NCBI GenBank assembly: GCA_905178155.1
Contig: CAJINV010000008.1
Location: 2,795,303-2,859,302, forward strand
DNA from: Amoebophrya sp. A120
Taxonomy: Eukaryota; Protista; Dinoflagellata
Length of the DNA: 64,000 bases
Direction: 5' to 3'
The notes beneath the pieces are model-generated. The model was not told the DNA's origin. It did no database searches and saw nothing but the letters and a program-made list of their open reading frames with translations. This document shows positions 1,654 through 55,358 of the stretch, one piece after another (positions within the stretch are counted from its first letter, which is position 1; every line of letters begins with the position of its first letter). A program made the position numbers and the translations under genes.

Positions 1654-4600
1654 TTAGACTTGCTGTGTCAATTCCATCGGCTGCGGTGGATGACTTCGTG
1701 TAACGTCATTTCCTGATGTTTCCAGCGCGGCATTATTTGCATCACGCATCATCCACCCCCCTGCGTGCCTTTCCACGCCGCTCCGGGCGGCTTCATGCAT
1801 TCCCACAGAAGTAGCGGGAACATGATCATCTTCCACGGGCTCGTTATCACGACACTCTTCTCCTAGATCGGGAAAGACATCGTCTGCGGGCGGGCAAATC
1901 AGTTGCACGTTCACCAGCGCGTTCACCTTCAAGAACGACGGACCGCGCGGCGCGAATAGCGTGTTCGTGTTCGCAGATGAACTTTGCAGGTTTTGTAGGT
2001 ACAGATTCTGTTGCTGGGTGTGGCTAAAAATACCGGCTTGTCGAGGTCGTTCTCGTTGTTCGACAATGCTGCGGCTGGTACTGGCTTCGTGGCTCCGTCG
2101 AAGGAGAAACTCCCGGGTGGTCCGCCCCTGGCAGGACAAGACCAGATGGCAAATGCAGAAGGAGAACAGTAGTAACCCCAAGACCGCACAGGCGCCGCCG
2201 ATGAAGATGCCGAACAAAATGACCCCGTACTTCTTCCCGTAGTCGCTCGGGTGCTTGTGGTCAGGATCGTCACCCCCCTATCCTGAGCAAAAACGTACCC
2301 ACCCCATATTTAGAACTTGTGGCCATGCAAATCAGCACGCCCACCAAGTGTCTCATGCGGGTTCGCCTCAGAGCGCGGCGAGCCATTTTCTTTATTTTTT
2401 TCTAGCCAATTTTATAACTTTGCGATCATGCTCTACTAGAAAGGATGATACAGTGGATTTGCTAAAAATATGCGGGTCTACTAGCTGGGCGCGGCTCCCT
2501 TGCGTAGCTGAGCCTGTCATGGCCTGAGGCTGAAAACTCCCGAATTATTTGTGGTCTTGCAGACTTGGCTACGGGGTGGGACGTTTATACATTCGATACC
2601 CCACTCGTGTTCTCCTCGACTACCGTCCAGAGAAAGATTCCCACGATCACGGAAAACGCGAGCGCGGACAGGCTGGAGAGAAAGAGGTAGAAAAACGTGT
2701 AGTTCCGTTCCCCAATGCAGTTCCCAACAAAGGGACAGTGGTGGTCGAACCGGCGGACGCAGTGGTTGCAGTCGCTGCAGTGTCCGGCGCGCGGCGGCCG
2801 CACGATCTGGCACACCCGGCAAATCCGAAAGCCCTGCCGCATCTCGTCCACCGTCAGCGTCGTCGCGCAATGGAGTTGTTGCTGTACGGCCATGGGACGA
2901 GCGCCGGCGGGAGAGGCTGATGGTGCTCTTGCAACGTGCTTGGTAACCTTCTTGTCAGTCGCATGATCCTCCTCGGAAAAATTTCTATCTTCGCTTGCAG
3001 CACGTTTGGGGTCGTTGATGTCTGAAAGCGCCGCTGCTGCGTTGTCCATCATGCTTGTTCCATCCAGTAAAGCAACGCCCGCCGGTTCGTTTGTCCCGGT
3101 CGCAAGCCGGTCTCTCCGCAGGCGCAGATCGTGAGGTCTTCTCTCCACCGAAAATTGTGGTGCCGACGGAACTGATTCGCCCGCACGACGGACCCCCACC
3201 TGTGCCGTCACTTGTACTCCTTCTTGCACCGATGTACTACTTGCCGCAGTAGAGACCACCGATGTGACACTCCCCCGGGCGGAACTCGGGGCCGAAGTTG
3301 TTGTACAGAGCGCGCTTGTAGTCGCAGCAGGTTTGGCACCTCCACTGCTGATGGCCGCGGCAGTTGTACTAGTAGCCACGCCCCCGGCGTGGAAGGTCTG
3401 CAAGTGGTCGGGAGGCTTTGTCGTGCCCCGGGGCGTATTGGTGGTGCCGACTATAGCGTTTCGGCTGTTCTTCGAACTCGCTCCTCCACTCGTCGGGGGC
3501 GCATCTGCTGCTGACGTAACACAGGCTATTGCAGTTCTTCCCTGCTCTCCCGTGCCATTGGTGTTCCCTGACGTGGTGTGTCGGATGCGCCGAATCCCAG
3601 CGGCTAGCCTCGGGTTGGTTCCGAGGACAGATGAAGAAGCGGAAGCCATGGCGGTTTGCTGCACAGAAGTCGCTCCAGCTTTGTCTGTTTCGCTAGCGTC
3701 TTTCTGATCATGAGCTGGCTCCTGTTTTCTACTGTTGCCGTGAAACAACGCCTGCGGGTCCTCTGCGACGAGGCTCGGTTTTGCCTCTACTAGCGGCGTC
3801 CTCGCTTTTAACATCTCGGCACTGGAACAACTGCTGGTCCCCGAGGTCGAGTTCTTTGCGCTATCGCTTCTGTAGTTCAGTTGATTGTCTTCAAAACTTA
3901 ACTCCGTTTCACTTTGCAAGCTCGCCCTGTGGTCCGCGTCAAAAAGAACATGGCTCGATCTTCTACAATTTGTACCGCCCGCATCATCTTTGTTCAACAT
4001 CGTGTCAGGAGACAAAGTAGCTCCAGAATAAACCAGTGGAAAATGCGACTTCCTTGTGCCCGCCGGCAAAAACCACTTCACGGAGCCGGCCGGTCTAGTC
4101 GTTCCGCTCTGGTGCGCATGGGACGACGAGGTCATCCCGTTCATTGGTCCGGATACATCACCGAACCCAGCGCACTCACCGTCCCCCCGGTGGAAGCCGA
4201 TGAAATCATTCACCTCCTTTTCCAGCCCGGGAAGCAGATCCAGGATCTCCCGCCGGGGCAGAATCCCCGGGTCCGTGCAAGAGGTGAGTAACAGAAACGT
4301 TATCGTGCAAACCAACAGGAAAAACACGCACGCGGGCAGAAACCAGATGTGCGACAAGAGGTTGGTGGCTGCTGCTTTTAAAAGCATTTCGTTTATTCCC
4401 GCAGAAAGCTTGTGTTGGTCTTCTGGAGAAAGTTGTAGAAGGTCTAGTACAACTTCTGGTGTTGATCCAAGTACTCGCCCGGACGAAATCATTCCCCCAC
4501 TTGCCGTCGCAACAGGTCGACCTCCTGCGAAGAACGAGTCTTGATGTTCCATTATGCTCATCACCTGCTTGTCGTGTGTTTGTTGGTCTTGGTTCACCTC

Positions 4601-5254
4601 GTCGGGACGATCGACATAATCTTCATCCACCGCGATATTTGTGTGGAGGTCCTCGAGAGGACCACGATTGTTCCACACCACAGATGCTGAAGCGACATCC
4701 GTACCAGCGTACCAGAAATCCGGTCCAAGGACGAACAAAAACCAAAACGTCGGGACGAGGATGAAAAAGTACGCACAGGCCATGTACCCAAAATCCATTT
4801 TCGGCCCCGTCACGCACTTTCCGCGGCACAGCATCCGCGCGCCCTCCGGCAGGGGGTTCATCAAGGGTCTTGAGGCTGGCAGACGAGCACGAGGATCTTG
4901 TTCCTGCCGTCCACCCTGTTGTGATGACGATATCAAAGGGTCTTGGCCTTGCGCACGACCGTGGTTAATAGTGCCACTCGTATTCGTCGGGATTAAGTGC
5001 CAAATTTCGTGCAGCCGCATCTTGATGGAAAACAAACTTTGGCCAAAGTTATTGGGCGTGGGGGCAGTGGGTGCGACCACGTCGAGACATGGTCTAGTAG
5101 AGGCTGGGGCCGCAGGGCCGCGAGTTGCAACAGTAGAACTGCTCGTGGTCGGTAGCACGGAGACCGTATCCGCTCCGGATGACGACGATACTTGCCTCCC
5201 CTGGTGGATGAGCGGCTGCGTCGTGGCCCGGCGATTGGCACCAGACTGCTGCAT
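1654..5254 (-). CDS. DHHC-type protein S-acyltransferase (palmitoyltransferase) with long low-complexity insert; exons 5254-2599 and ~2273-1654
   Basis: [49 protein letters not shown] and TM helices; TTRE motif in the second exon. Removing introner 2279-2598 plus 5 nt joins ...[12 protein letters not shown]... in frame. Confidence 0.92.
2279..2598. mobile_element. Introner (TIR family D), 320 bp, in the DHHC gene
   Basis: Ends tatcctgagcaaaaacgtacccacccc / ggggtgggacgtttatacattcgata; flanks ccccc/cccca. Confidence 0.85.
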
Positions 5255-5831
5255 TTTTGTTCTACCTGCGGTCACGACACTTGCTCTGAATCAATATCGA
5301 GGTAGGAACAAAGTGAGTATTTGATACGGAGGAGGCTAACAAGAGGCTTTTTCACAAAATTTCAACAACAGGCTTCAACGTGCGAGTGAGTAAATTGCAT
5401 TTTTGCCACGCGTTGAAAGAGAGGGACACGCACCGATTGCTGAGGGCACAACTTTTGTGAAGCGTCCATAGCTGTGAAGGACCGATGGGGGGTGGGAAGG
5501 AAGCACGAGGACGAATTATTTTCATCACTATAAATATGGGATTGATAGTACGGGCGGCGCAGGAACTGTTAATTATGCGGGAAGAAGCTCAATGTCGACC
5601 ATTCATATGCATAGCAATAGATGACTTTCTCTTGTTCGTATTCGTTCTCTCGCAGGAAAACAAAAATATTTGTCGACATGCGTGCACATAGAACGTTCAA
5701 GTTCGAAAAAAAGCTGTAAAAGAGAGATGATAGATGAACACAAACGGTTCTGCTCTTATCATGCGCTGCTCCACCGGAACACTCCACCGGACGAGGAGCA
5801 CACCATGCCATCAAATACGATGCCAAATAAC

Positions 5832-8800
5832 CTACGTGGTGCCGCCCCATTGTGGATGTTGCAAGCCCACCACATTCGCCTGCGGGCCTCCTGCTGCTTC
5901 TGTTCTACTTGAGTAGCCGGCGTAAAAAGAATTCTGCTGGTATGAAGGTGGCGCTTGTACCAAATGAGGATAACCGTCAACGGGGGTAGTATATTGGGAA
6001 GTAGCACGCGATGAAACAAAAAACGGCGGACTACTAGTAGTCGCCGCCGATGGGGGCGGCGCAACACCTTGAGAGAAAGTCCTGAGTTTGAATTCGCAGG
6101 TGAAAGACGTGTCTCGCAACGTTTCGCCGGTGTATTTTTTCCCCGCTTCCTTCGACTGGGCACTCCCAACCATTCCCCGTGCCTCCTTCGTCCGGGTGTG
6201 TTCGTACCCGAAGGCCTGGTACAGCTCCGCGGCCCAGGGGAATTTGTCGCCCACCTGCTCCCACCCGGCGTTCGCCGCGATCGCGGGAATGTTCCAGTGC
6301 GTGTACGGAAATCGGTCCGCGAGGGTCACGTGCACGCGCGTCCGCTCCGGGTGCACAAAGGAATTGTGCGCGCACTTCCCCAGACTGGCGAAAAACCGAC
6401 CGAAAAGCTCCTGGTGCTCGGACAGGCCCCCGATCGTCCCCGCGGGCGCATTCGTCTGCTCCGCGCCTGAGTGCAGAAAGTTGACGATCACGTAGTCGAA
6501 AAAGTGGCCTGCCTCCGGCGAAAATTGCTGCTGGCACAGTTCGGTGATGAGTCTGTGGGGCCCATTTTCCCGTCTTTGGTGCACCAAGCCGTAAACGGGG
6601 ACCGTCGAAGTCGTGGTGCTAGTAGCGCCCCAGCGGTCGTTGTAAGTCGGCACCGTGGTCCAGCTCACTATTTCCTGCACCGGGGGATTCAGAGGCACAA
6701 AGTAGTCCGGTATGTGCAGCTGCGTGCAGTCCACGCTCTCGCCGACGACCACCCCGCCCATTCCCTCCACGTCCCGCTTGCATTCCTGGAGCCGCTGGCG
6801 AAAATCCCGCTGGCCGCCGAGGTCAAAGGTGGTCGCGATCAGGTTCTGCGCGTGTCGCGGGCCGAAGATCCGTGCCAGCGCCTTGGTGAAGGAAAAGTCG
6901 CCTTCCCCCACCAGGAGAATCTTGTGCTCCGGGGTGTAGGGGCAGACCGGCACTGCGAAATAAGGGGGATTTTGTCTGTTCTTTCCCAGAAGATGATGAG
7001 GCTCGTCCAGCGGGGAGCAGTTTTGGTTCTGGGTAAACAAAAAATGCGCAATCGGCAGCTTGTCCCGGTGGGGAAAGTCCTTTGTCGGGTAGCTATTGAA
7101 ATAAGGGTCATTGGCGACTTTCTCCGCCCGGAGCTTGAACAGAGCCCCCTCGGCGCACCCGGGCACTTCCTCCCGCCAGAGTTCGTAGGGCGGTTGGCCC
7201 CAGAATTCCTGTCGCTGATGAACGCGCAGGTAGCGCATGCCCCGTCGCTTCGCGCACAGCTGCTCCATCTCGCGGACGAAAGGAACCGCATTCTGGATCA
7301 AATTCTCGTTGATGCGAATCCACAGCGGCCACGTGCGCCCCTTCCCAGCAACAATAGGGTACTGGTGCGCTTCGTCGAGGCCTGTAGGTTGCAAAGTAAA
7401 ACTGGTGGAAAAAAAAAACTTCGTACGGCGACTTGTACACTCGACTATAAATCCACCGGTAAAAAGGAAACACTTGCTGGTGAGGAATAGCTTCAGATGT
7501 GTCACACGCGGAACTCGAGTTTGAAGCTCAACGCAAAAAAAGAATTAACCGGTCGACGGCCAACAGTCTAATTTTACACCGCTATCTCGTCGATATTGCA
7601 GATTTTATGAGCGGACAAATCATAATGATTTTTTTTCATATACCCTCCAGGATTCGTCTGCACCCGTTTTGCGTGATCAAGTTATGCGACAGGTGTACTT
7701 CCTCGACGAAGTAGCAGCCGCGCGTATCAAAAGCAAAAATCCCCCCTCCCCATATCAAAGTGGCAATCTGTGTTGCGGGATTTGTGTACACGAATCCGCT
7801 TTGTCTTGCAGTAGAGGACTGCAGGCAGATGCAAAGCCTGGAAGGGGCTGGCTGGAAGTGGGCGCGCAGCATGGCAGACGTCTGCCCTGTTGGCGCAGCA
7901 GCATTACCAAATATAGCCGCCGGGGCGGGGGTAGTGAGGTCGTGGGCGTTTTTTTGCCGACCGCCGCCTTGGCCGCGCCTTTGTTTTTTCTGGGCTCGCC
8001 ATACCGCCGTGAGTAACGTTATGCCGCACGGTATGGCGGCCACTTGGGAAACATCACAAATTTTGGCACATTTCCCAAATTCCTTTCCGAAAGCCAGCCC
8101 CGATGCTATGGGGCCGATCCGGGTGCCACGGGGGGCGCCCAAAAAGCGAAGAAAAACCGGGCCCATAGCATGCGGATTGGCTTTGCGCGTCTGGGGCGTT
8201 TTTTATTTTTCGCGTTTTTATTTTTCACGCCGGCGCTTTTTGCAAAGCTTCCCAGGCTCTAAAACCGGCGAAAAGGCGGCCGCTTTCGCGGCCGCCCAAG
8301 ATGCTCCGAAATCGCGGCCGTGCCATGCTGTTTCGCTGTTCTGATTTTGGGCGCGTTTTTTGCGCGCCCCTTTTTGGGCGCCCCAAATCGCCAGAAACCA
8401 AGGCGGCGGGCGCCTCGGAACGGCGCCCCTTTTGCCGGCTTCCCTGCGTCGCTTTATCCAGTGCGAATCGATAGTTTTCGACCGGGCTTGTTTGACTTCA
8501 AAGCCCCGGAGGCTTGATAATTGAAAATCTTTTATGTCAAAAAACGCTTCCGGCCGCTTGAAAACTGCCGGTCGTTTTTCACGGTAGGTGGCAAAAAAAC
8601 TCCCCGGTTAGAACCGTTCGGTGACCTCACTACATACAAATCGCCGGCGTAAAGCGGCGGAAGCTCTGGCTTTGCGATCTTGCAAGACAGACCTGATTTG
8701 TGACCCCAAATCAGCATCACAAATTTTCAAAAGGATGCCTTTTCGATATGGGGAGGGGGGATTTTTCCTTTTGATAGCGCGCGGCGGGGAAGTTCTTCTG

Positions 8801-11460: not shown

Positions 11461-12472
11461 GCATCATACAGAAAAAACGAGGGGAGCTGCACAAGCTTCT
11501 TTGATAAGTAGTTCCTTCGGAGGTAGAGAAGGGAAACGATCAGGCGAGCCAGGAACTGTCTATGTGCATCATAAAAAACCCGGAGCCGAACCAAAAAGAT
11601 GCGAGTAGCAAAACAATGAAAATAAATGGAGCACTGCTCCGGTGCTCAACATACCAGGACTGTTTGTGTTTCGCAACACCTCTGCTTTTCGCCCGGCGGC
11701 GCTGTGTTCTGGTTCTCGTCGACCACAAATCCCTTTCAGCGAGGGCGCTCCAACGCGATTCGGCTCAGGGTAGCCGGCGGTATCGTGGGTACTGTGCTCA
11801 TTCCCGTCTTTGCACCGCGGCGCGTCGCGGCCCCGAGAGTCGTCTACCTCTTCGTCGTGCTCATCAAAAACTGTTGTGAAGATATTCTGAAAAAGCGACG
11901 TCGTGTCATCCGGACTTCCGATATGGAAAAGAAAAGTGAACATAAGGTCGTCCCCTTGATGTGCGTGCTGTGGTCTGCCTCTGCGGTGTGGTCCGCACGA
12001 CACCTAGTGCTGCATGCAGTGAAAGAAAGGCATGACACAACTTCCCATGTCTATACGCACACAGCGCAGCCCGATGCGCGACGGGTGGTCAAGCACAAGC
12101 GGACACGAACTACGTCGATGTGTTCCGTTTCGTAAAAATCATGATTCAGTGGCTTGTTCCGTGACGGGACGGAAATTTGCTGCGCGCGGAACCCACCATC
12201 CGGTGGCGGCAGATCCAAAATTCTGGCACTCCCCGCAGGGTGCGGCAACTGGAGCTGTGGAAGAAGTGTTTTTTTAACTGCCCCCCGTTGCTGCAGTGTC
12301 TCCACCTCTTCACGATCTTGCGCCCCGTCTTTATCTCCACCAGGAGTGGCCGACTCTACTTCGAAGGCAACCTGTAAGGAAAAAAAGAGAGTTCTACTTG
12401 AAGATGAATCCATATTTTTTGTTTTTGTGACGCAGTTATATTTGCGCCGAATCGGCGGGAACTGCCTCAACA

Positions 12473-14169: not shown

Positions 14170-14913
14170 TCAATACCCGGACCTAAAAAATAGCAGCAAC
14201 TTCATCCTTTCTTCATGCCAAAGTACTGAAACGAGACTCACAGCAGGCCAGCTATAATTTCCATCATAAAGTGGCTCGAAAGAATTCTGTCGCCCCTGTT
14301 CAACCGCTCCGGGAAGCAGACCCAATTTGCTGAAAATCGGCTTCCCCAACGGCATCCCCGGGGGACAACGACAACCTGCAGTCTTCAACAATGCATTACA
14401 ACTCGCGCTAGTAGTATTCGGAGGCGGTGTCGTCCTCACCGGTGTCGGCAGCAGAGAGAGGCACGCCGGCGCAAAATTCTTCTCACAAGCCACGACACTT
14501 GTTCTTTTCGTTTGCAGCACATCACGACTAGCAGGATGCAAGGTCGCACCTTCCGTGCAGCTCCCGAACGTGGTCGTAGGAAGACCTCCGGACGAGGCGG
14601 TGGAGGACACTACAGCACCGCCCGGAGCGACTGGCGCACTTTTCTCGTCTGGTGGGAGATGAACAACGGGTGGCAACGTGCACGTAGAGACGCAACAGGC
14701 GGCGTCCTCCAACAGGTTCGTGTCTAGTTCCAAGAGCGGCCAGAGGCTCACCGGCTTCTCCATGGCGCACATGCGGCAAAACCGGTTCTTGCCGAACTGG
14801 TAGTCTCCACAGTAGGGGCAGTACCAGTCGCATCGTCGGTAAAAGCGTCCCCGCCCCAGGTTTGTCACGAAAAACACCAGCGCAACACACTTTGCCTCCT
14901 CCTTTGCAACCAA
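14170..14913 (-). CDS. Exon with RanBP2-type zinc finger
   Basis: DWYCPYCGDYQFGKNRFCRMC matches W-x-C-x2-C-x10-C-x2-C; exon boundaries uncertain. Confidence 0.6.
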   Translation of the reverse strand: MVAKEEAKCVALVFFVTNLGRGRFYRRCDWYCPYCGDYQFGKNRFCRMCAMEKPVSLWPLLELDTNLLEDAACCVSTCTLPPVVHLPPDEKSAPVAPGGAVVSSTASSGGLPTTTFGSCTEGATLHPASRDVLQTKRTSVVACEKNFAPACLSLLPTPVRTTPPPNTTSASCNALLKTAGCRCPPGMPLGKPIFSKLGLLPGAVEQGRQNSFEPLYDGNYSWPAVSLVSVLWHEERMKLLLFFRSGY

Positions 14914-14930
14914 AAGCGTAGCACACTTCT

Positions 14931-14955
14931 ATCATCATCATCATCATCATCATCA
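14931..14955. repeat. (ATC)n microsatellite
   Basis: About 8 ATC units. Confidence 0.8.
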
Positions 14956-16639
14956 GCGAGCACTAGGTCTTTCAACCCAACCTCCCAATTTTCCGGGCGG
15001 CAGGCGTTCCCGTTACTAACTTTGCCTCACCAGATTTGTCAGGCAGGGGCGCGTGCCCCATTTGCGCCTCCAGACGTTTCTCATGTGCAGCTCCACCAGG
15101 AGCATAGTAATCTAGTGCCGTTTTGGACTTTGATGTCAAGCCATAATCAGGATAACGTGATCGATTTGCGATCTGGCTGCACTAGCGAACCACGACTACA
15201 CTGGGAGCCCAAGCCTGGTGTCATGCGTAACGGCTAAACATTATCGTCGATTTGCGTAGCATAGTGTAGTAGTTCTCCTCTTGCCTACTGATGAAGCGGG
15301 GACGTAGTTCTTACTGAGAATAAGTCGCCCGGCCGCGTCATTCCCGGCCGCACGTTGCTCTTCTTGTTCCGCATGGTGTTCCCCTAGCTCTAGAAGGGTC
15401 GCACCAATCTCGCCGGATATATGACACCCCTTGGTCAAGATGTTGCGCTACCCGATCAATGCATATCAAGCAGAGTTGTAGATCACAAACAGTTCGGCCG
15501 TGCGCAGCCGATTGCGCACTTCGCTTGATGACATGAAAAGTCGCATGTTTATATTTTTAAACAGAAACCTCGAGCATCGTCTTCAACGGATTTACTACTA
15601 CTGGACTTTGTACCGAAGCGATCATGTAGAGCAGCTTGTGCCTTACAAGTGAAGCTTTGAGCTCACAAATAATTATAAATATAAATCGAAAAGATTTTTT
15701 GAAGCAAGGGTAAAGAGAAAAAACACAAGAAAGGAAAACAGCCTGGCTGTTGCTAACGCCGTCACTGCGACGACGAATGCGAGAACTGCGCTCCATCACC
15801 TCGTCCAGAAGTGTAAGCCAACCCCTGTGATAGAAAGGGACACAACTACGTAGAAAAACCCTATTGTCTGACAAAGTCATGAAGAATACAACTACCGAGA
15901 AACAGAAGGAGCAAGCAACAGCAAAACACAAACCAGGAGCATTTTTTCTCTTTTCAACGCCACGGATCTGATGAAAATGGACCAAGACGATTCAGCAGTT
16001 ACCGGATCGCCCTTTTTCATTTTGTCGTTGAGCCAAGTGCTGGAAAAACGTGATGAAGTGTGCATGTTCGTTTTCTTCGGTGATCCTTGTGGCGACGATG
16101 CACTTCTTTTGTATACGTAATAGATACTTTGGTCTTGACCTCCCTCAGGTGTGTATTTCTTTTGCCATCTTTTCTCTCAGGCTGGGGAAGGATAAGTTGA
16201 ACAACAACAAAAGACCAACCATGCCTCACGAATCCACCGAATACCAGAGGGCGGTAACATTGTACCACTTTGGCCTTTCCGTCGCAGCAACGAACCTTGG
16301 CGAATAATCGCTTCGTCAGAGCCTACAACTATTACGCGTTTTTACTGCTAAACAGCCTCCAACGGCGTTTGTTATAACAAGGAAATATGTCGTCGGGGGC
16401 TGTTCACTGTTGAACGTGAAAGGGGGGTACTACTATAGCAACGTGATGTAAAAAACCACAATACTTCGGCTTTCCACATTGTTCTCTTTTCGGGGTAGAA
16501 CCAAGTGACCAAGGCCATGTGCTCGTCGCCAACTGTCAATAAAATTACACTTCTAAATACGATGCTTGTGCTTTATTCCCAAAAACGTAGTGCCGTATGA
16601 TCTGCGAGCACTTCTGGCTCATACACAAAAACCACACTT

Positions 16640-37200: not shown

Positions 37201-37866
37201 ATGCCCTCCTCCCCCGTCGCCTCTTCGCGAAACGTGGACCACACGCCAATAGCGGAGTCCGCGCCAGTGGAAAACCTCCCCCTGTCGGAGAGCCCGAAAC
37301 AACTGCGCGCCGCTCCTGCGTTTTCTACGCTCGCAAAGCAGCAGTGCGCTTCCTGCAAGCAGCGTGCAACGAACCTGGCGCGGTGCCGTCGAGGCTGCGA
37401 CTTGCCGGTGTTCTACTGCTCTATCGCGTGCCAGACCAAGCACTGGAACGCGCAACACAAGTTTGTGTGCAAGACGCCCGAGGAGCGGGAGCTGGAAAAG
37501 AAAAAATCCGAGAAAATCAAGAAGAAGCAGGAGCGGAAGATGCGGCTGGAAAAATATCGGATGTGCAAGGCGTGCGGGAACCCAAACTGCTGGAAGGCGA
37601 AGATGTACGAGAAGCTGGTGTATCCAAATTTTAAAGTAAGCACACGTCGAGGTCTGACAAGGAAGCTGCCATGCAGAATGGTGATAAATAAGTTGATCAT
37701 GCTTCATTTGGGTGCAGCCGAGCACGACAAGGTTTTTGGGCGCTTTTTCAGGTCGTGTAGTGCGCTTCGCGCACCCCTGCATTCTGGCATGATAAAAGAG
37801 GTCGCGCGCTTGTTCTACAGAACCTACGTAACACACCGACCCACGCTACATAAACGGGGGCGATAG
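37201..37866 (+). CDS. MYND zinc-finger protein (3' structure uncertain)
   Basis: CASC...LARCRRGC...FYCSIACQTKHWNAQHKFVC. Confidence 0.75.
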   Translation: MPSSPVASSRNVDHTPIAESAPVENLPLSESPKQLRAAPAFSTLAKQQCASCKQRATNLARCRRGCDLPVFYCSIACQTKHWNAQHKFVCKTPEERELEKKKSEKIKKKQERKMRLEKYRMCKACGNPNCWKAKMYEKLVYPNFKVSTRRGLTRKLPCRMVINKLIMLHLGAAEHDKVFGRFFRSCSALRAPLHSGMIKEVARLFYRTYVTHRPTLHKRGR

Positions 37867-39141
37867 ATAAATACACTAAGTGCGTGACTCCTCCCCCCTG
37901 CAAACTGACAGTCCATTGGAGCCCCGGGTTTGTACACCGTTCGGGACTATCTGGGTTGTTGGGGGGCAGATACGATATGACACTGACCGCAGACTTGTAT
38001 GATTTGTATGCCGGCGCGCGGCAGTTGTCGTGATAGTGCTAGATGAAGGGCATGCCTGCGTGTGACGGACCGGTAGAGGTGTAGTTCTGTTCAAAAGGTT
38101 GTAGTTCCGGATGCTGCGATAGTTTTTTGCCCGGTCGGCGCCACTAAAGCACACGCATAGACGTAGACGGGTTTGGGGCTATATTTACAAGGCAGCGCTA
38201 CTAGTACCAAGAAGACAAAACTTTTACACCAAAAGCACTAATACACTAATACGAGGATGATATACTAGACGGGGTTTAGGGTTATAAGTCTGTGATCAGG
38301 CTTGGCGCGCTATTAAAGCGTTTGCTTCATTACAAGACCACCACTACGGTGGCCCGCAGTGCCCACACCAGGCACCGGGAAGTGAAAGTTTTAGTAGTGT
38401 AGTACTTTGGCGGAGGTGCCTAAACACCCGAGTCGGGTACAAGTAGTCGTACTAGGCACAATGATTAGGTGCTACACTACTCGCCACGCACGCCCATACC
38501 ATACCATACAGATTTATTTACGAGACAAGCAACGCTATGCAGGTCCCACTTGTTTTCCAGGCCCAGACATGTTTGCAGTGCATATGGGCGCCGAGGAAGT
38601 TGCAGACTCCGATGAGGAAATGTTTGCCCAAGAAGTGGTGGCGTGAAGACGAAATGCACAAAGGACTGCTGAACAAGGAGAGATTTCGCAGATGAAGATG
38701 AATCCAACCACGCCGCTTCGATATTTATGATATATCTATCACCTACTTTTTATACAATGTTTTGGTCGGATGTCAATTGACATATGAAAATGTGCATGCC
38801 AGAGACCTTTTTGTTGGCCGTTCGCCCACGATTCTTGTATACTGCTCGGAGATAATTCATACCGGAAAGCACCTTGTACAATACAGCTTTTGGTTCGCGA
38901 TCTTACCAGATGCTTTTTGAAATGCAACTCTAGCCGTTGCTTGTAGTCGGCAATAAGTTCATCTTTCGAACTCGTTTCGCAATTGCTCCGCGAGAGTGAA
39001 AAATACACAGAAATAAGAATCGTTGGACTGTGCCGGCGCTCGAGGAGAGAAAGGCTGCTCGCGTATGTAGCTGCGGATGCCGAAATTCATTTTGTTCCAC
39101 CCGCTTTTACCTTGCTCGCGTTTCGTTAGTGGAATACAAAG

Positions 39142-45568: not shown

Positions 45569-48500
45569 ATGGACCTGCTTTCGCAAGAGGATGCCAACGG
45601 CGTCCGGATGTCGTGGAACCTGTGGCCCAATACGAAGGCAGATATGAATCGCATCGTCGTGCCTCTCGGCTGCATCTACTCACCGTTGAAACAGGTAGTT
45701 GTTCAAACTATAACACAGATTCCACAGTTCTTGCTGGGTACATCATGATCATCCATACGTAAAGTTAGATACACATACACGTGATAAGATATGCATGGCC
45801 CTCGTGATAACAAGTTTTGTATACGTACGAACTCCTGCGCAACAATGCACCAGGTCACCGACCTGAAGCTTGTCGGGTACGACCCGCTAGTCTGCAAATC
45901 GGGCACCAACAACTGCGTCGCGGTCTTCAACCCCTTTTGCTACGTCGATTTTCGTGCAAAGACCTGGACCTGCAATTTTTGTGGCTTCAAACAGCAGCTA
46001 CCGCCGTACTATGCAGAAAATATTTCGGAGTCCCAGCTGCCGCAGGAGAAAATGTAGAATTGGCGTAAGAGTAACTTGATTTCGAAAAATTATAAGTCTC
46101 AACACAGGAGCTTGTATGAAATTGAAATTAAAAAAGCAGACCAAATATAAAGATCAAGCGCAATGAAGAAAATCAAACACGTTATCGCGCAGGTCGCCGA
46201 CGATTGAATATCTCCTTCCGAACACCTCCTGCATGCCACCGGTTTTTCTCTTCGTGCTCGACACAGCGCTGAATAACCCGGAGGACTGGAAAGAGTTCGA
46301 GAAGGCCAAAGAAGCCTTGCAGTCGACTCTGCAGTCGATGCCACAAAATTCGCTGGTCGGGTTCATCACCTTTGGTGCCATGGTGCACGTGCATGAGCTG
46401 GGGTTCCAGGGCGAGCTCCTCAAATCCTACGCCTTCATGGGCACGAAACAGTACGTGTCACACAGAAAAAAGCTATTATTCAGACGGTATATTTGTATAC
46501 GCGAAGAAAAGAAAAACACATGAGAAGACTCGTAACAGGGTGGTTAGGCAGCTGTCGTGCAAGACAGATTTATATGATATTTTTGCACTACCAAAAATCA
46601 TGTGGTTATTAATGCTAGCTTTTTTTCTGGGATAGTACGGCACGCAGCAAATAGCCGGCATGCTCGGCGTATGGATTGCAAAAATGTCTGGGTCTGGAAG
46701 ATTCCCAGATTTGTCATGCAGGGTTTCCATGACCGATGAGGTCTGGTATGTAGGACATAGCATGACAGATTCTGCGAGACCTTTCCAATGCCTATCCTGC
46801 ATGACAAACTCCCTCCCGACTTGGTCAAAACCGGACGACTTTTGGTAATCATGCAACACAGATTTTTGCATGCTTCAGATTCAGCATGACGAGTTGCATT
46901 CTTCCAGACCCAGACATTTTTACATTTGATACGGCGTGAGCATGCGGAACGACCCCCGGGGGAACACGCGAACGGAGTTATTGAGAGGAAAAATCCCCCC
47001 TCCCCATATTGAAAATGCATGTTTCCGAAAATTTGTGTTGCTGATTTGAGGTCACAAATCACATCTGTTTTGCAAGAAGGCACGGGCAGAAGCTTCCGCC
47101 CCATTATGGAGGCGATTTGTCATGCTGTTGGGCCTAAAGGGAAGCCGCTCGCCATGCTGAACAACTAGACGCATACGCCCCTACCTAGCCTGGGGACCTG
47201 ACTGCAATGCTTTTCTGCAATACAAAGCTGATTTGTGTACTCAAATCCAGCGTCAGACATTTCCTTTCGATATGGGGAGGGGGGATTTTTCATTTTGATA
47301 GGAGTCGGCGAAGCGGTTTCTGCTGCCGATATCCGAATGCGAATTCGCGTTGAATAACATTTTGGAGGACCTCCGCACCGACCGATGGCCGGTGGAGGAG
47401 GGGCGGCAGCGGTGTCAGCGCTGCACGGGGGGCGCGCTCAACGTGGCGGTGGGACTCCTGGAGAACCTGTACGCGGGCCACGCCGGCTATGGAAGCGTCA
47501 GGTTTGAAATCGTCAAAGTTGAAATAATTTGTGATGCATAAAATGCGACACAAAAAGTGACTCTATTGCAGAGGACCCAAGGGAGGCAGATTATAGTCCT
47601 GGTAAGGGTCAAAAGTTGGACTGCTAACTAGCACGACAGAAGGCAGCTCTTTTGCCCTAAACCGCATGACAGACTCGCTTCCAGGACCGGGAAAATTTGC
47701 CATGCACCGACTACAAACTGCAGGCCTAACTGGTATCTGTTTTATGCATGACAAACTATTTCAACTTTGACGATTTCAAACCTGACACATCCACGCCGGC
47801 CGGATAATTCTGCTCGTCTCGGGCCCCTGCACCGCGGGCCCCGGCGCCATCGTGTCCCGGGACAAGAGGGAAAACATGCGCTCACATCTGGACCTGCAAA
47901 AGGAACAACCCAACGCAAGGTACAGTTACAGCAACGTGATTGTAGTGCTGCGTGTGCTGTTGCACTACCATGAAGGAATATTATCGCAGGGGGTAAAACA
48001 TAAATCGATCAGATCAGGTAGAAGTAGTACCGCGATCGATAAAAAAGATTCTGCGCAGCACGGTGATAAAAATACTATCGCGGAAGGACGAGTTCTTGTT
48101 GAGGAGTTCGATGCTACAAATTGATAATCATGCAAAATAAAGAACTTTAGGTATTGCAAAGGTGCCAGCAATTTCTACCTGTCTGTCGCGGCCCGCGCGG
48201 TTTCGACGGGCCACGCGATTGATATTTTCGCGAGCTCGCTGGACCAGGTAGGACTGCACGAGATGCGGTGTTTAGTGGAGCGCAGTGGCGGGCACATGGT
48301 CATGGCCGACGGGTTTTCGCAGCACGTTTTTCGCGATTCATTCAAGAAGGTGCTCTCCAAAACGGACTCCAGTGGCCAGTGTCTCGACATGGGCTTCAAC
48401 GCCCGGATCACCGTGCAAACGAGCAAGGAAATAAAAGTCTGTGGTGCGATCGGACCGGTCTGCAGCATGCAGAAAGCGCGTATTTAGATTTACTTTCCCA

Positions 48501-51500
48501 TGGTGAAGGGAGATGAGAAATTTGCTTCACAGCATATATACTTTTTCGAAGTAAAATTTCTGTCTTCGACACGCGTCACTCTCCTTTTTGTTTCCACACG
48601 ACCAGCACTGAAGAAGGCCTGAAATTTTTCTTGCCGCGCGACAACAATAAATAAGTCTCGCGTAGTTGTTTCTCCTCCATCGATTATCAGACCCGTCCGT
48701 GGCAGACACGCAGATATCAATTGCAGAAATGTCTGGGTCTGGAAGGATGCAAGGTTTGTCATGCTTATCTGGCATGACTGAAGAGTTTGTGATGCGGGTC
48801 CAAGAAGAGACCCTCTTGCTTGTCATGCAAACGCAGCTTGTCATGCGGAAAGCGCAACACTAAGCCGCGCAAAAATCTCTCATGTTGGCTGCGCATTACA
48901 GAAAATTCACTATTCACAAATCAGCATTTTACAACAAGTTTCCAGACCCAGACATATTTGCATTTCATAGCAGATCGGGGAAAGCAACACCATCACGTGG
49001 GCCACGAGCGCACTAGATCAGCAGTCCTCGGTAGCGTTTTACTTTGAGCTCGCAGACGACGGCGCAGACGGGAAGAAACAGAACAAACAGGGGCAGGCAG
49101 CCTTTCTGCAGTTTCAAACCCTGTACCACCATCCCAGCGGGAAGAAGCGACTGCGAGTGACTACGGTTGCACGTGCGTACTTAAGTATTTGTTCTATCTT
49201 TCCGGAACCTCTACGACCTGGTTGCGCTTTTTGGGACGTTCTATGTATGAGTGATGTTTTCCAGAACAAGGAAAATATAGGTCAGGCGAAGAGGAGGGGG
49301 ACGACCCGTGTATAGGTAGCCGGCTAACAAGCGTGCCTGTTTTTTATCAACCGCCCGTTGTACTGTTTTTTATCAACATGGTCGCAGGTATAGCGATCCA
49401 GAGTTGCTGGACATCGGCCAGGCGTTCGACCAGGAGTGCTATCCACAAAAAAAGACCCATCCCCATTCAATTTTTTGTCATGCAAAACATGCGTCGAAAT
49501 GCTGTGTTTGTCATGCAGAAAATGGATAGGGATCATTTGTTTTTCCCTGGATAAGTGCGCGGCGGTGCTGCTCGCCAGGTTCTGCATGCACCAGGCGGAG
49601 TCCACCGAAAGTTTCGACGCCTTGCGTCGGCTGGACCGCATGCTGATCCGGATCATCAGCAAGTTCGCCGCCTACAACCGCGGCGACCCGAGCTCGTTTC
49701 AGCTGGCGGAGGAATTCACACTGTATCCTGAGTGAATAAGTACAAACCCACCTCGTCCCCATAGTGCAGGATGGAATTTATTTTGCGCATCAGAGGCTCA
49801 GGCTTTTGCTGCATAAGTAACCGTGCTTAGCTACATGTCGCAGCCGCATCGTAAAGCGATCGTCTCGTCCGGATTGTAGCGTTAAAAAAATACAACTAGA
49901 AATAAACGGTCCTGCAGCTCATGAGCCTGTGCAACATGGAGGGCGTTTCATGCTTGCAGATTTGCGAAGACAAAAAACCGCTTGACCCACCTCCTCTGCG
50001 TGTCAAGCCATCTGCATGGGGCAGAGGGGAAGGCGCGAATGGTCCTGCAATTTTCCCTTCAGCATGACATCAACTCTGGGGCGGCGACGATTTTGCCCAG
50101 GATACACTGTTCCCGCAGTTCATTTTCTACCTGCGAAGAAGTCCCTTGCTTGAATATGAACATGAAAAGTGCCCCACCCCCAGAAGTGAGCATAATATTT
50201 CCATGATGCAAAGTTTCCAAATGTAAAGCTTTGGTCTTGCATGAGAGGTCTGCAAGTCTTCCTGATCCAGAGCGTAGGCGTTGAAAGCCGTCCGTACATG
50301 ACGAATTCTGTTGCTGCTAGGCCTTTATTTTGTGACGCAAACTTTAACTTTTGCCCATCTGCCTGGAACATTTGATATGTTGCTGGACTATGCAAGAAGG
50401 GGAACTACAGCATCATCAATGTTTGCAGTGGGAAGAAGAGCAGCTTTTGTAATGCGAACGCTTTCCCTTCGTGGAGTCGGGTCGCTTTTCCGCATGATAG
50501 GGAAACTTTCAACTGTTCCCCGGACGAAACGGCCTTCTACCGCGTGTGCATGCTGAAGAGCAACGTGGTGAACTCGCTGGTCATGATTCAGCCCGCGCTG
50601 ATGGAGTACAGCTTCGACAGTCTCGCCCCCGTGCCGGTGCTGCTGGACTCCCTGAGTCTGAAGAAAAACGTGATCTTGCTGCTTGACACCTTCTTTCACG
50701 TGGTGGTCTGGCGGGGGGAAACCGTGCTATTAAATGCAAAAATGTCTGGGTCTGGAAGGTTGGAACTTGTGATGCTACCTTTGGACTCTACAGAAAATCT
50801 GTATTGCATGAACAGCATAAGAGGCGCAATTTGTGCTACGCGGAGAGGGCATTTCTCATGCGGTATGAGCATCAGAAAACCCTCGCAGAGTCTCTGATGC
50901 TAGGGCATGCATCACAGACCTCAGTCATGGGTCATGGAAAATCTGCATGACAAACTTCTGCGCTCTTCCACATATTTGCAATCCATACGTGCAGGAGTGG
51001 TACAACCGCGGGTACCAGGAACTGCCGGAGTATTGAGAAGAAAAATCCCCACACCCCATATCGAAAAGGTATGTTTCCGAAAATTTGTGTTGCTGATTTG
51101 AGACCACAAATAGCGTCTGTCTTGCAAGAAGACAAGTGCAGGGGCTTCCGCGCCATTATCGAAGCGATTCAGCATGCTGCTGGGCCTAGGGGACAGCCGT
51201 TTGTAATGCTAAACAACTAGACCCAAACGCCCCTACCTAGGCCGAGGATCTGGCTGCGATGCCGTATTGCAAGACGGCGCGCATTTTTGTACAGAAATCC
51301 AGCATCAGAAACTTCGTCTCGATATGGGGAGGGGGGATTTTTCATTTTGATACGGAGTACGCGAACTTCAAAGAGCTCCTCATCGCCCCGGCGAAGGATG
51401 CGAAGGACATTTTGGAAGACCGGTTTCCCGTGCCGAAATTCGTGCAGACCTACGCGAACGGCTCGCAGGCGCGATTCGTGCTGTCCCGCGTGAACCCAAG

Positions 51501-51903
51501 CAAGACGCACACGCAGTTGAACGACTATTCGCAGGTGCCCCCGTATGCAAAAAGAAAGATGTTTCACTGGAAACTTGTACTGCGCTGGGATATGCAACAC
51601 GAAAACTGCTCTTCCTTGCGTTCCACGGGTTAGAATACTTGCAGCACAGGCTCTTCTATACGTTTTTTTACTCCAAGTACAGGAACTGAGCGAGGCAATC
51701 ATAGTTGTTGTTTCTCATATACACGACTGAAGAGCAGACCTTTATGTAATGATGCCATGTGCATCACCGTGCAAAATTAAAGTCGCCACAGTGAAGCAAT
51801 CTTTTCGCACGATACGACCGGGGACAGCAGCGCAACGGTGATAACGGAAGACATTTCGCTGCGGAATTTCATGGAGAGTCTCATCAAGTTCGCTGTCGCA
51901 TAG
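45569..51903 (+). CDS. SEC23: COPII coat subunit Sec23, interrupted by 10 introners and at least 6 other introns
   Basis: [132 protein letters not shown]. Confidence 0.97.
46456..46634. mobile_element. Introner (singleton), 179 bp
   Basis: Ends tgtcacacagaaaaaagcta / tagcttttttctgggata; DR gtacg; join gives TKQYGTQQI. Confidence 0.85.
46670..46931. mobile_element. Introner (family A), 262 bp
   Basis: Ends tatggattgcaaaaatgtctgggtctggaag / cttccagacccagacatttttacatttgata; DR cggcg. Confidence 0.93.
46979..47300. mobile_element. Introner (family B), 322 bp
   Basis: Ends tattgagaggaaaaatcccccctccccatat / atatggggaggggggatttttcattttgata; DR ggagt; join gives [10 protein letters not shown]. Confidence 0.93.
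47488..47795. mobile_element. Introner (singleton), 308 bp
   Basis: Near-perfect inner TIR gtcaggtttgaaatcgtcaaagttgaaata; DR ccggc (extends to ccacgccggc); join gives [11 protein letters not shown]. Confidence 0.9.
48715..48969. mobile_element. Introner (family A), 255 bp
   Basis: Ends tatcaattgcagaaatgtctgggtctggaa / ttccagacccagacatatttgcatttcata; DR gcaga; join gives DTQIGES. Confidence 0.92.
49440..49553. mobile_element. Minimal introner, 114 bp
   Basis: Ends tatccacaaaaaaagacccatccc / gggatcatttgtttttccctggata; DR agtgc; join gives FDQECAAVL. Confidence 0.85.
49724..50104. mobile_element. Old introner (family D-like), 381 bp
   Basis: Ends tatcctgagtgaat / attttgcccaggata; DR cactg; join gives [14 protein letters not shown]. 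Confidence 0.85.
50155..50499. mobile_element. Introner (family C, inverted relative to 34199), 345 bp
   Basis: Left end tatgaacatgaaaagtgccccacccc; degenerate right end ...cttttccgcatgata; flanks ttgaa/gggaa; join gives [13 protein letters not shown]. Confidence 0.82.
50728..50987. mobile_element. Introner (family A, inverted relative to 46670), 260 bp
   Basis: Ends tattaaatgcaaaaatgtctgggtctggaag / cttccacatatttgcaatccata; DR cgtgc; join gives GETVQEW. Confidence 0.9.
51031..51352. mobile_element. Introner (family B), 322 bp
   Basis: Colinear with 46979-47300; DR cggag; join gives LPEYANFK. Confidence 0.93.
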
Positions 51904-53313
51904 AGATGGCGTTTTTTTTGAAAATCTAGCCAGAGTTTTTGGATGCAAAAAAATTTTGCATTGTTCTTCACTTCAGTATCTTCCGTTTCGAAGAATCTAA
52001 CCTCAATCAGTTAGCAAATTCTGCTATGTTAACCATTTACTCGTTTGCGTTTTCAATACGATGAAAAATCTAACTCAAGATCTCGACAAAACTTTTTCAG
52101 AAAATATTTAACATGATTGCAAGGAGAAGCGGGTCAATTTTCGGTGTTGCTTTACTATTCAGGCCGCGAAAGCCAAAGCAAGACGGGTCAATGCATCCGT
52201 AGATGCGCAGTGTCTGCTCCTTAAGTCGATACCAGACGAGAAGACGCGGAATTTTTTGAGCTGCGGAGCAAAAATGCTGATCCTTATTAAGCTACGTAAG
52301 CAGTAGGCTCACCGAGCCATCGCAGCACTTCGCAATTCTATTCATCTATAAATAATGAACGTATTTTTAATTTTGCGAATGCGAGTTGATGCAGTTTGCA
52401 GTTGGCCGAACGCCAACCCCAAAGCCAGTACCAATTGCACATGTGCCGGAGCTGCTATATGAATACTTCGAAGTGGGTAACTGTAACTCCTTGTGTGGGA
52501 GGATGATATACTCCAAAGCGAGCGAGACCAAACGGCCTGCGCATATTCCTATCCTGTGAACTAGTACAAGGCTCTTGCGTAGTACTCGCACCGAGCGTGA
52601 TTGTGTTTTCGTGTCGCTTTTTCCGGCGGTCATCCTCTCAAGCGACGACGAGACAGCCATGGGAACCGTTTGCGCACTATATCCGATAAAAATTTTGTAT
52701 GCAAGATAACTTGTTCTGTGGAGCGTGTGTTAGATACACTCTTCTAGTCAGTATGCCATGTCTCTGCGCATGAGTAAGAGCAGGGGGAGTATTGGGAATA
52801 CTGAGTGAAGCAGCACAGGTTCTGCCAAAAATATGTCCGTGCTCTAGACTTTTTCCGATTCGTTTCTAGAATGAAAACATGTTCAACATGCAGAAATGCC
52901 TCAAATTTTATTAGAGACCTTTTCATGAATGTGATTGCTGGTGGCCACACTGCTAAAAAGTGCGCACGAGAGACGACGCCGATGATTTACTAGGCCTTTC
53001 AAAGTAGTCAGCACGACCGTCAAAAGACAGAAGAGAGCAGAGTCAGCTGCTGCAGCTCTGCTGCAGAGACAAAGCGTCAAAGCTGCACAAGTTTTGAACT
53101 TAAGCTCAGCACGCCAGGGCCGGCGCAACAAGATTCCGGATGCGCTGCGGTCCGTGGCGTAAACTGATATTGAGCGATTTGTGTCACTTCAATCTAAAGC
53201 TGCCTTAATAGGTCTTTCCGTTGCAGAAGGTGCGCGTGTGTCTTTGTGTCGTGCAGCAGCACTACTTGAAATACTTTGCTTGTTTGAGGTTCGCGTCTGC
53301 CCGTGAAGACAGG

Positions 53314-55358
53314 ATGTGGTCGCGCTCGTTGCGTATGCTTCCGATCGCACTGCTGCTGCAGGGCACTTCGACGGCAGCCACTGGCAGCTGCACCGCTAGC
53401 GAGATCATTCAGAGTGAAGTCGGCGGCTACGTGAACCAAGTCATGGCCGAGATGGTGCAGCGCGGGGCGATGTCCGTCGATGCTGCGATATCTATGGCGG
53501 GGAAAGTGAAGAATGATACTCGTGACGGTTTGCTGACGACGCCGCAGACCGCGATGCCGTCTCCGCTTCCGTACAAAGATGTGGCGTTTACCGCGGCTTA
53601 CGTTTTGCAGGAACTAAATACCCACTACCAGCCGTCGGACTGGCGCTGTACAAAGCAGGCCAGTCTGTTCGCTTCTGGGGCGCTCCTGGTGGTTCCGCAG
53701 CTGGTCCTGGAGGATTACCTCGGTTCCCAGCTACTTCCTTCTGCGGATTTCAGCTATTTGCGTGAGCCGGAAATGTGGACGCGCACCGTGGTGGCCGAGT
53801 GCATGATCCGGGAGGTTTTTTCGGCCGACACGATTGCCGAAGCGAATCAAAACGCCCTGTACCTCAACTCCGAGCTGTTGACAATGACGCGCGAGCAGTG
53901 GCTAGTGTGGGAAGCAGTGTCGGCCAGTACGCCCTTCGACGCGTCCGCTCTCACTGAAGATCTGTTTGAACACAAAATCCGCATGTATCAAGCCAAGTAC
54001 GGACCGGCGTTCGAGCAAATGACTTACAAGAGCGCCATCATCACTGTGGCCTTTCGGCAAGCACATGCCCGCAGCATCGGGCTCGATACCAGTACGGACT
54101 CGGAGATGCTGTACCAAAACGTGAAGTGGGCGAGTGACGTGATGGCAACCTACGGTGGAAATGCGCCCGCGCACCTGCGCAACATCCAAGTCGGCAGATT
54201 GGTGGAGACGCTTTCGCGTGCGTCGGCTTTCACCGCCTCCGCGGACCGGCGCAGTGTATCCCTGTACAATCAAGCAAACGGAATTTCATCCTTGAAGGGG
54301 TACGAAACTTACTACGCGGCCTTGAATTCCTTCTTTATCGTCAAGTTCGCCGACTTTCTCTTCAAAACCGTGTTTGCAGCCTCCTGTCCCCACTACCAAG
54401 ATTGGATCTCCACTAAATATCACTATGCATTGCAAATATCGGCTCTGGTCTGGAAACATGCAAGTTTGCGATGATCGTTCTGTGTGGCTGGACAGGAAAA
54501 ATAAAAAAAGGCATGTTTTATGACAGGAGGTAAATTGGTTAGACCCATTTGTTTCTTGCCGCGCTGCAGCAGAGAGGGGATCATTTGTCATGCCGTGACT
54601 ACAGATTCACTCTTTTTTTATGCTTTATTGCCTTTGATTTTGATAGCCGAAGAAGACGAACAGGCGCAGGGACGACAAGGCCCGAAATCTCCGATCTCAT
54701 GCGGAGTAAAGATAATGAAATGCAGCGGTCTTAGAGGATTGTGTTTGTGATGCTGTGCCATGCAGTGGAGACTTCTTTGGGCATGCTGGAGTACTACAGG
54801 CAAGGCTAGCATGAATAGCGTCTGCATCGTTCCAGACCCGGAGATGTTATCCTTGCAATGCATACCTTCATTACAAACTTGATTGCGCCGCTGATCAAGA
54901 AAGGGTCTGGAGTGGAAAACTACATGTGGTTCCGTGCCATGGCGTTGGAGGCGCGCGATTTGTGGGGAGACTACACAGCCTGCGGAGATAAACCGTCGAA
55001 GCCCCTCATCCCGAAAATCGAGCAGCTCATCAACCAGGGGCAGGTCGTTTCTGCCACAACTTCCGGAGCCGGTTCATCGGGAAGTAGTGACGGCACCGAC
55101 ACGAATAACATGAAGGACACGGCGATCGTTATCCTCGCGGTGTGCGTCGGTGTAGCCCTCTTTGGGATCCTGTTCGGCAGCGTGGCCGTGCTGAACCTGG
55201 TGAAGCTGACACGGCAGCACGGCACCGGGCTCAGCGGTGCGTCCGGCAAATCCAGCGAAGAATCGTCTACGAATTTAGCTACTGCAAAGCCCCTGGACTG
55301 CGCGAGCCCCGACTGTGTTTTGGTGAAGTTGCCGGCCACTGGGGAGGCGAAACAATAG
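53314..55358 (+). CDS. Secreted/type-I membrane protein of unknown family, copy 1 (exons 53314-54423, 54870-55358)
   Basis: Signal-peptide-like MWSRSLRMLPIALLLQGTSTA, S/G linker, TM AIVILAVCVGVALFGILFGSVAVLNLV. In frame after removing the introner plus 5 nt. Confidence 0.8.
54424..54864. mobile_element. Introner (family A), 441 bp, DR decayed
   Basis: Ends tatgcattgcaaatatcggctctggtctggaa / ttccagacccggagatgttatccttgcaatgcata; flanks atcac/ccttc. Confidence 0.8.

Follow-up and report, generated by a model that had tools for sequence, protein, structure and literature searches.

Introners in a 64,000-nucleotide stretch of the genome of the dinoflagellate plankton parasite Amoebophrya sp. A120 (contig CAJINV010000008.1, positions 2,795,303 to 2,859,302 of the forward strand; hereafter the window) carry a short internal motif with the consensus YYTGTSWTGC, commonest in the form TTGTCATGC, which is shared by families whose terminal inverted repeats (TIRs) differ in their inner parts. 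The motif is confirmed as real and enriched in A120 introners; its strict exclusivity to introners holds for the window only. The elements themselves are known, and the internal cis-element is apparently both real and undescribed. It is probably a protein-binding site on double-stranded DNA that the transposition machinery of these introners uses.

An internal motif enriched in introners

The window catalogue was built with a motif-blind scan for paired ends and 5-bp duplications, which gave 17 clear elements, the clean set for motif statistics; nine degenerate elements were added by eye, from an RNA joint or from the reading frame, two of them (e3 and e8) with the motif already in view. A 5-bp target-site duplication (TSD) flanks the introners of the window. 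All ends of the clear set start with TAT (34/34), 32-33 of the 34 have A at positions 11-13 and most have G at position 9, a pattern to be read with the preference of the end-calling script for TAT/A-run type ends. A preliminary description of this DNA had called the TIRs of families A-D unrelated: this is wrong for positions 1-15, in which they are related, and right for positions 16-30, in which they differ. The first 12 bases of the TIR resemble the internal motif weakly (mean score -8; the 95th percentile of interiors is -3.8).

Enrichment was counted in positions 1-55400 of the window, leaving out the tandem gene copies past 55400; here the 26 elements span 9,090 bp. The word TGTCATGC occurs 25 times in introners vs once in the 46,310 bp outside (Fisher p 5e-19) and is the most widespread 8-mer among the elements (16/26); the looser TGTNWTGC occurs 64 times within elements vs 13 times outside, where its rate of 0.28/kb is the chance level (0.23-0.26/kb). 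A matrix iterated on the elements converges on YY-TGT-S-W-TGC, with purines preferred on both flanks. Young elements have three to four copies each, and the motif thins out with damage: TGTNWTGC is found in 15 of the 17 clear elements (9.8/kb) and in five of the nine with damaged ends or TSD (2.4/kb). The sole TGTCATGC outside the catalogued elements, at position 12030, sits, we infer, in an apparent one-ended old element starting at 11922. The seven GT-AG introns supported by contig joints (1,192 bp) have no TGTCATGC and one TGTNWTGC, and the motif is absent (zero copies) from the open reading frame (ORF) of a long interspersed nuclear element (LINE), a 31-bp satellite, a nested insert and four intergenic stretches of the window. 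The preliminary description had proposed one motif with several variants, and would have given up the idea if the motif were just as common in canonical introns and in intergenic DNA; the rate there is that of chance, so the observation stands. All 18 positions that it listed carry TGTCATGC or GCATGACA within two bases, inside elements defined by TIR and TSD; the loose variants GTCTTGCA and GTATTGCA, with 3/10 and 3/9 copies located outside elements, are weak by themselves.

Could such words simply reflect base composition, for example TG/CA-rich words left by CpG decay in repeats? The elements are mildly TG/CA-rich (1.27) and CG-poor (0.88), as this would have it. When the interiors of the 17 clear elements are shuffled with 2-, 3- or 4-mers kept (300 shuffles each), TGTCATGC reaches at most 7 vs 21 observed and TGTNWTGC at most 12 vs 56; all 300 shuffles that keep 4-mers, which rule out CpG decay as the origin of the motif, fall below the observed counts. 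With its non-random spacing and conservation, and with other repeats of the window lacking it, an artefact of composition is scarcely credible.

A gene for Sec23 offers a control within one transcription unit. Its whole 769-residue protein maps to the window in 17 blocks, with one junction residue unplaced, and the exon at 48152-48475 is identical to the Amoebophrya sp. A120 protein in 108 of 108 residues. All 11 Sec23 introners are missing from the annotated protein. TGTNWTGC is present in 10 of these 11 (29 copies), in none of the five canonical introns and nowhere in 2,304 exon bases. The gene and its introners are as follows (+ or - after a position gives the strand of the motif):

45569-51900, plus strand: the Sec23 gene itself, with 17 exons, five GT-AG introns and 11 introners
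46456-46634: e15, degenerate introner; TSD GTACG; one motif, 46559-
46670-46931: e16, family A; TSD CGGCG; motifs 46712+, 46760-, 46799-, 46853-
46979-47300: e17, family B; TSD GGAGT; pair 47034/47066, also 47118+ and 47217-
47488-47795: e18, TIR without A-run, right TAT damaged; TSD CCGGC; motifs 47530+, 47664-, 47746-
48715-48969: e19, family A; TSD GCAGA; motifs 48757, 48788 and 48821 (31 and 33 apart), 48839+, 48893-
49440-49553: e20, minimal introner of 114 bp; TSD AGTGC; two TIRs and one motif pair, 49476/49509
49724-50104: e21; TSD CACTG; one antisense motif, 50062-; removed in RNA contigs
50155-50499: e22, degenerate introner; motif 50448+
50728-50987: e23, family A; TSD CGTGC; pair 50768/50800, also 50909- and 50945-
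51031-51352: e24, family B; TSD CGGAG; pair 51086/51118, also 51202+
51544-51814: e25, old introner; TSD degenerate; no strict motif, weak variants; not in the annotated protein

Replication in a second assembly

A held-out set of 170 loci (373 kb, non-redundant) was fetched from assembly JACKZZ01 with a TIR-only pattern, a query that biases the set to family A. These loci, which may or may not come from the same strain as the window, have families in common with it (identity up to ~90%) and no overlap with it. Motif-blind calling gave 241 elements with perfect 5-bp TSDs vs two in reversed sequence; with one overlapping call dropped, 240 remain, of which 238 contain TGTNWTGC and 198 contain TGTCATGC. 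Before masking of missed elements, the rates are 6.8/kb inside vs 0.94/kb outside. Three further families have TAT ends and 5-bp TSDs and no A-run in the TIR (L043:3339-3574, L029:2486-2792 and L061:963-1178); their TIRs otherwise have little in common with the rest, yet the motif is present in all 11 of their elements, its inward copies mostly 42-44 bp from the ends. The proposal of a cis-element common to the families is supported, and holds for families of this type as well. A search by the published A120 inverted-repeat consensus would miss these three families. The pattern of the family A TIR has no match in viral contigs.

At 75% identity, 266 elements fall into 82 clusters, the largest with 51 copies; cluster representatives were used for the geometry of the motif.

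Same-strand pairs at a fixed distance

In the window, 20 same-strand pairs fall in the 30-34 bp band, all of them at 31-33 bp, where 4.3 are expected and the null reaches 12 at most. The 58 held-out cluster representatives have 53 such pairs vs 8.2 expected, and the 21 of them outside the largest group have 23 vs 2.7; at least one pair is found in 39 of the 58. The analysis of spacing that the preliminary description had suggested brings out same-strand pairs at 31-33 bp, far above expectation. The spacer keeps its length while its sequence is poorly conserved, and the distance likely corresponds to about three helical turns; the best-fit period is 10.4 bp (all representatives; 56 held-out), also with 29-35 bp left out. 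As to position in the element, an inward copy lies 30-47 bp from at least one end in 44 of the 58 representatives and from both ends in 23, and the distance of the first inward copy from the end peaks at 33-34 and 41-45 bp.

Two earlier statements bear on this geometry. The minimal element of 114 bp was said to hold two copies, and does, at 49476 and 49509, 33 bp apart. The variants in 34199-34504 were said to recur roughly every 15-35 bp: nine are present, and five of the eight gaps are in this range, while the gaps overall run from 5 to 48 bp. Two copies in opposite orientation may overlap to form a 14-bp dyad; this arrangement was considered and rejected, for it looks significant in the window (5 vs 0.4) and is no more than borderline in the held-out representatives (8 vs 1.5, null maximum 8). 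The three blocks of a degenerate satellite at 25189-28077, with a 31-bp unit and phased A-tracts, have the same period as the motif pairs and lack the motif.

Conservation within families and along branches

In 12 families with 174 copies in all, the six positions of the motif core depart from the family consensus in 0.051 of cells vs 0.175 for other interior positions. On trees of 286 full-length copies, changes on terminal and internal branches number 320:67 in the core vs 2356:1013 in the interior (p 6e-8); the tree count is used because a count of private alleles is confounded by saturation. The same skew is seen in the TIR, with 39:0 at positions 1-3 and 39:1 at positions 11-13. Copies in which the motif is damaged rarely give rise to sub-lineages, which would follow if movement depends on it; with sparse sampling, terminal branches include unsampled transposition history. 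The rate of core change on terminal branches, 0.033, is comparable in magnitude to the TSD mismatch rate of 0.043 per pair (54/1,255 pairs), which serves as a rough clock of time since insertion, and this would fit neutral decay after insertion. No same-site insertion pairs were found among 316 held-out copies, and the tandem gene copies of the window, with 0/12 core vs 14/346 interior differences, are too few to judge.

These data bear on a rival explanation, a passive relic: all families would descend from one transposon with tandem units of ~31 bp, and copies of the motif would be kept by descent and slippage with no function. TAT ends and 5-bp TSDs are indeed common to all families, single linkage chains 204 of the 266 elements into one group, and at 48738-48795 Tandem Repeats Finder reports a duplication of 31 bp around a motif pair. 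A relic is largely refuted by the 3.4-fold stronger conservation of the core relative to the neighbouring interior within families; moreover, spacers diverge while spacer length and motif persist, and the interiors of 24-29 groups do not align mutually, yet most keep the motif. This explanation is highly improbable.

Strand, transcripts and removal

If the motif were read in the transcript, it should prefer one strand. Copies in the window are 33 sense and 31 antisense (gene strands partly inferred). For the held-out set, host strand was called with a codon model, correct for 16 of 17 on the window in a partly circular check; it called 167 of 245 copies, whose insertion orientation relative to transcription is 91:76 (p 0.28). 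Family 4, in which all strong copies lie on one strand, inserts 8:7. Among the 167 stranded copies, 13 lack a strong sense match and 13 an antisense match; among the 82 representatives, strong copies occur on both strands in 58 and on one strand only in 20.

The joints were read from X3 and X4 contigs; the two runs are a single sample and are only presumed to be RNA. Among the 15 joints listed of 40 are seven non-GT-AG element joints and seven GT-AG introns. Two raw RNA runs with the same species label, X9 and X10, cover 2 and 4 of 30 bins and give no joints, and a further read set gives only repeat-driven DNA joints among the 15 listed of 125. Two elements are informative. The old introner e14 (37621-38584), with no strict copy in its 964 bp, is removed at a non-canonical 3' end (joint 37619>38589, runs X3 and X4), and e25 is absent from the Sec23 protein, by protein mapping, without a strict motif. 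Where the TSD copies differ, the cut falls one base before the first TAT and four bases after the last ATA; there are only two such cases, the unambiguous joint 37619>38589 and a contig piece starting at 51818 (element 51544-51819). In these cases the cut lies outside the TAT/ATA ends, so the target DNA supplies the splice dinucleotides.

No co-adaptation for pairing is seen between left and right copies: the variable dinucleotide is the same in 9 of 32 (8.8 expected), and predicted RNA pairing of motifs equals the shuffled-spacer control (0.74 vs 0.71). Pairing of motif with motif in RNA is rejected as a function, given the unmatched copies, this control and the representatives with copies on a single strand. 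A sense-strand RNA signal is unlikely, given the lack of strand bias, the removal of e14 and e25, the absence of matched pairing and the one-strand representatives. Neither of the properties expected of an RNA splicing signal of the branch-point or enhancer type, location on the sense strand and presence in every removed intron, was found (e14 and e25 lack strict copies; weak variants are possible).

A broader version holds that the motif serves removal of the element from the transcript through a bound factor, on DNA during transcription or on RNA and in either orientation, which marks the intron for a spliceosome apparently without U1. U1 is undetected in A120, and the available text of PMC7789003 leaves the splicing mode of these introns open; nearly all young introners have the motif, and canonical introns lack it; most representatives are strong on both strands (58/82); the core stays conserved on terminal branches, its rate of change not rising with TSD mismatches; and redundant copies could mask selection by the host. 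Against it stand the absence of sense bias, with the one-strand family 4 inserting 8:7; the splicing of e14, non-canonical 3' end included, with no strict copy; the excess of motif-breaking changes on terminal branches; the failure of left and right copies to match and of predicted pairing to exceed shuffled spacers; and the 31-33 bp spacing, which suits double-stranded DNA. On balance, a mark for removal is unlikely.

A putative site for the transposition machinery

What would read the motif? A protein oligomer, through the DNA-binding domain of a DDE transposase or as a host cofactor common to all families, may bind copies on one face of the helix, and the bound oligomer would help to bring the element ends together. 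Copies that lack the sites would then seldom have progeny. Once an element is inserted, its motif would decay, and its removal from RNA would go on by means of the ends. A single motif in families that differ in their TIR interiors suggests that they share one factor, perhaps a host cofactor, and the reading as a transposition site draws on the analogy with the Herves transposase, which binds short subterminal repeats (PMC3143072, as far as its available text goes). The preliminary description had left two options: a subterminal or internal transposition site fits best, with the 31-33 bp spacing, the inward copies, the strand independence and the motif-breaking changes on terminal branches in its favor; a removal mark read in RNA is disfavored by the lack of sense bias and by the removal of 37621-38584 with no strict copy.

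Several observations weigh against a transposition site. When 81 ORFs, 12 from the window and 69 out of 117 locus ORFs with at least 230 residues, are scanned against Pfam, no transposase family is found at E < 1e-5, and PMC7789003, in the text available, found no transposase in A120 and argues against general transposase-mediated mobilization. The terminal-branch rate of the core is under half of that of the interior (0.033 vs 0.078) and is flat across TSD mismatch classes (0.033, 0.033, 0.032), as is the motif count per copy in the held-out set (3.9, 3.8, 3.9), so decay after insertion is unsupported there; weak variants also persist in e25. Copies are spread through element interiors, not just close to the ends. 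The helical argument narrows when one element is taken per single-linkage group (28): only the 31-33 bp peak holds, the wider 10.4-bp period has p 0.07, and a period of 16 fits the non-A families equally well. Finally, 88 TGTCATGC (0.45/kb, 15x chance) lie outside the end-based mask in 197 kb of held-out DNA; many of them belong to further TAT-ended families.

The bound protein may instead be a host chromatin or transcription factor that protects the insert or makes it tolerated (silencing escape, polymerase passage, chromatin packing), thereby favoring the spread of carriers with no part in transpososome assembly. This is quite unlikely. A motif common to families with different TIR interiors would suit such a factor, since hAT transposase sites are element-specific (PMC3143072, in its available text), and the DNA-level features fit equally well; a general factor should have sites in intergenic DNA and canonical introns, where the motif in the window is at the chance rate, and the inward copies stand at fixed distances from the ends. 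A long shot would combine functions in a single DNA-binding protein of the host: by reading helically phased YYTGTSWTGC pairs on the chromosome, it would aid transposition of all TAT-ended families and also mark the bound stretch for co-transcriptional excision by a U1-less spliceosome. If true, what defines an intron would be a mark on DNA that works in both orientations, and not splice-site sequence.

Common to the families, with a fixed 31-33 bp geometry and signs of selection, the motif can serve as bait in pull-downs and be targeted by mutagenesis. It sets the roles of the ends apart from the role of the interior and speaks for the 1,954 reported families being a single system with a common factor; as a marker, it can help to annotate introners and to find their autonomous partners.

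Other elements and features of the window

The introners outside Sec23 are these:

2279-2598: e1, in a DHHC gene on the minus strand; TAT ends, TSD with one mismatch; weak motif variants only, at +43, +73 and +275
7725-8776: e2, family B; TSD GCGCG; nested insert at ~7911-8640; motifs 7769+/7802+ (33 apart) and 8682-/8714- (32 apart)
14831-15322: e3, degenerate; TSD AGTCG; motifs 14882-, 15219+
17088-17402: e4, family C; TSD CGGAC; six motifs, with the pair 17219/17252
17585-17864: e5, family A-like; TSD GGGAC; motifs 17672+ and 17774+, both antisense to the host gene
18683-19054: e7; TSD TCGTC; strict motif absent, two matrix matches scoring at least 11
20492-20705: e8, degenerate, family A-like; TSD unmatched; motif 20617+
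21382-21622: e9, family A; TSD CGGAC; four same-strand motifs, with the pair 21536/21569
21694-21903: e10; TSD TAGTC; motifs 21741-, 21758+, 21850+
33843-34124: e11, family D; TSD CGCGG; six same-strand motifs, 33878/33909, 33957/33990 and 34039/34070 (31, 33 and 31 apart)
34199-34504: e12, family C; five strict motifs, inward copies 44-45 bp from either end, pair 34422/34453
37621-38584: e14, old introner; TSD TGGTG/TGGGC; no strict motif; spliced out in RNA contigs, its 3' end non-canonical
54424-54864: e26, in a tandemly repeated gene with copies at 57887-58320 and 61343-61776; motifs 54586+, 54746+

RNA contigs start at 2599, directly after e1, and continue; e8 leaves the minus-strand frame 20243-21100 open and may be either spliced or kept as coding sequence. 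Nearly all of the 26 elements are apparently in coding sequence and none is in the intergenic stretches checked, which suggests that introners may prefer exons as target. The stretches 11917-12126 and 17980-18254 are probable old introners with a single recognizable TAT end; no RNA joint was seen for either, and taking out 11917-12126 would join an open frame, a hint that one intact end may suffice for removal. The insert nested in e2 (7911-8640) is 730 bp long and GC-rich, with a DNA depth of ~260x single copy; a TAT-type TIR, the motif and a second copy in the JACKZZ01 loci are all absent.

Two other features lie in the window. At 39130-41904, a 924-residue open frame with a reverse transcriptase domain (RVT_1) is likely a non-long-terminal-repeat retrotransposon. 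A tandem gene array fills 52900-64000 with near-identical units of ~3,456 bp, the same introner in each complete copy; copies 1 and 2 differ mostly within a stretch of ~130 bp in their introner, a pattern like that of patchy gene conversion.

Comparison with known systems

A120 has tens of thousands of non-canonical introns, for which the available text of PMC7789003 leaves open the spreading enzyme and the removal machinery; the inverted repeat reported there is TAT, seven looser bases and then at least three As, and U1 is undetected. Published A120 introners (Farhat et al. 2021, PMC7789003; Gozashti et al. 2025, PMC12130899; available parts) have the same TAT/A-run repeat, short direct repeats, non-GT-AG junctions, many families and no coding capacity. 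The elements of the window share the form of the inverted repeat, a direct repeat of 3-5 nt, non-GT-AG removal and the grouping into families. An A120 introner family with TIRs and a Copia-like ORF is on record in the available text of PMC12130899, and no link between it and the elements studied here was established. The accessible text and supplements of the A120 papers give the terminal inverted repeat and direct repeat only, with no internal motif, pairing or conservation described; figures, theses and subscription papers lay outside this search. The motif was not found in the accessible parts of PMC12005148, PMC11282704 and bioRxiv 2020.10.14.339549 either, and no Amoebophrya paper turned up in the literature on subterminal sites.

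Nonconventional introns of euglenids (PMC11282704) are similar in being bounded by TIRs, in resembling miniature inverted-repeat transposable elements and in being removed without GT-AG; their signal is described as an RNA structure formed by pairing of the ends, and the available text describes no shared repeated internal motif. The TAT ends and 5-bp TSD resemble those of the integrase-related transposon clan: IS3EU/GingerRoot have TA..TA ends and usually a 6-bp TSD, IS481EU has TNT..AYA, and Ginger2/TDD has TGTNR and a 4-5 bp TSD, and TAT..ATA with 5 bp is a combination in no group listed in the parts available (PMC10045372, PMC2836005). A120 introners share the TA..TA termini of IS3EU/GingerRoot and differ in TSD length (5 bp, not 6), and their TAT ends do not match the TGTNR termini of Ginger1/Ginger2.

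The hAT elements, which make an 8-bp TSD vs 5 bp in A120 introners, offer a parallel to the motif itself. The subterminal repeats of hAT Herves, CG/AATTCAT, are likewise short, occur in both orientations inside the TIRs and tolerate variants (PMC3143072, available text, whose reference list also includes Ac, Tol2 and Tag1). The Herves repeats are bound by their transposase. While hAT sites are element-specific (PMC3143072), the A120 motif is common to families that differ in TIR interior, and it also takes up the middle of short elements.

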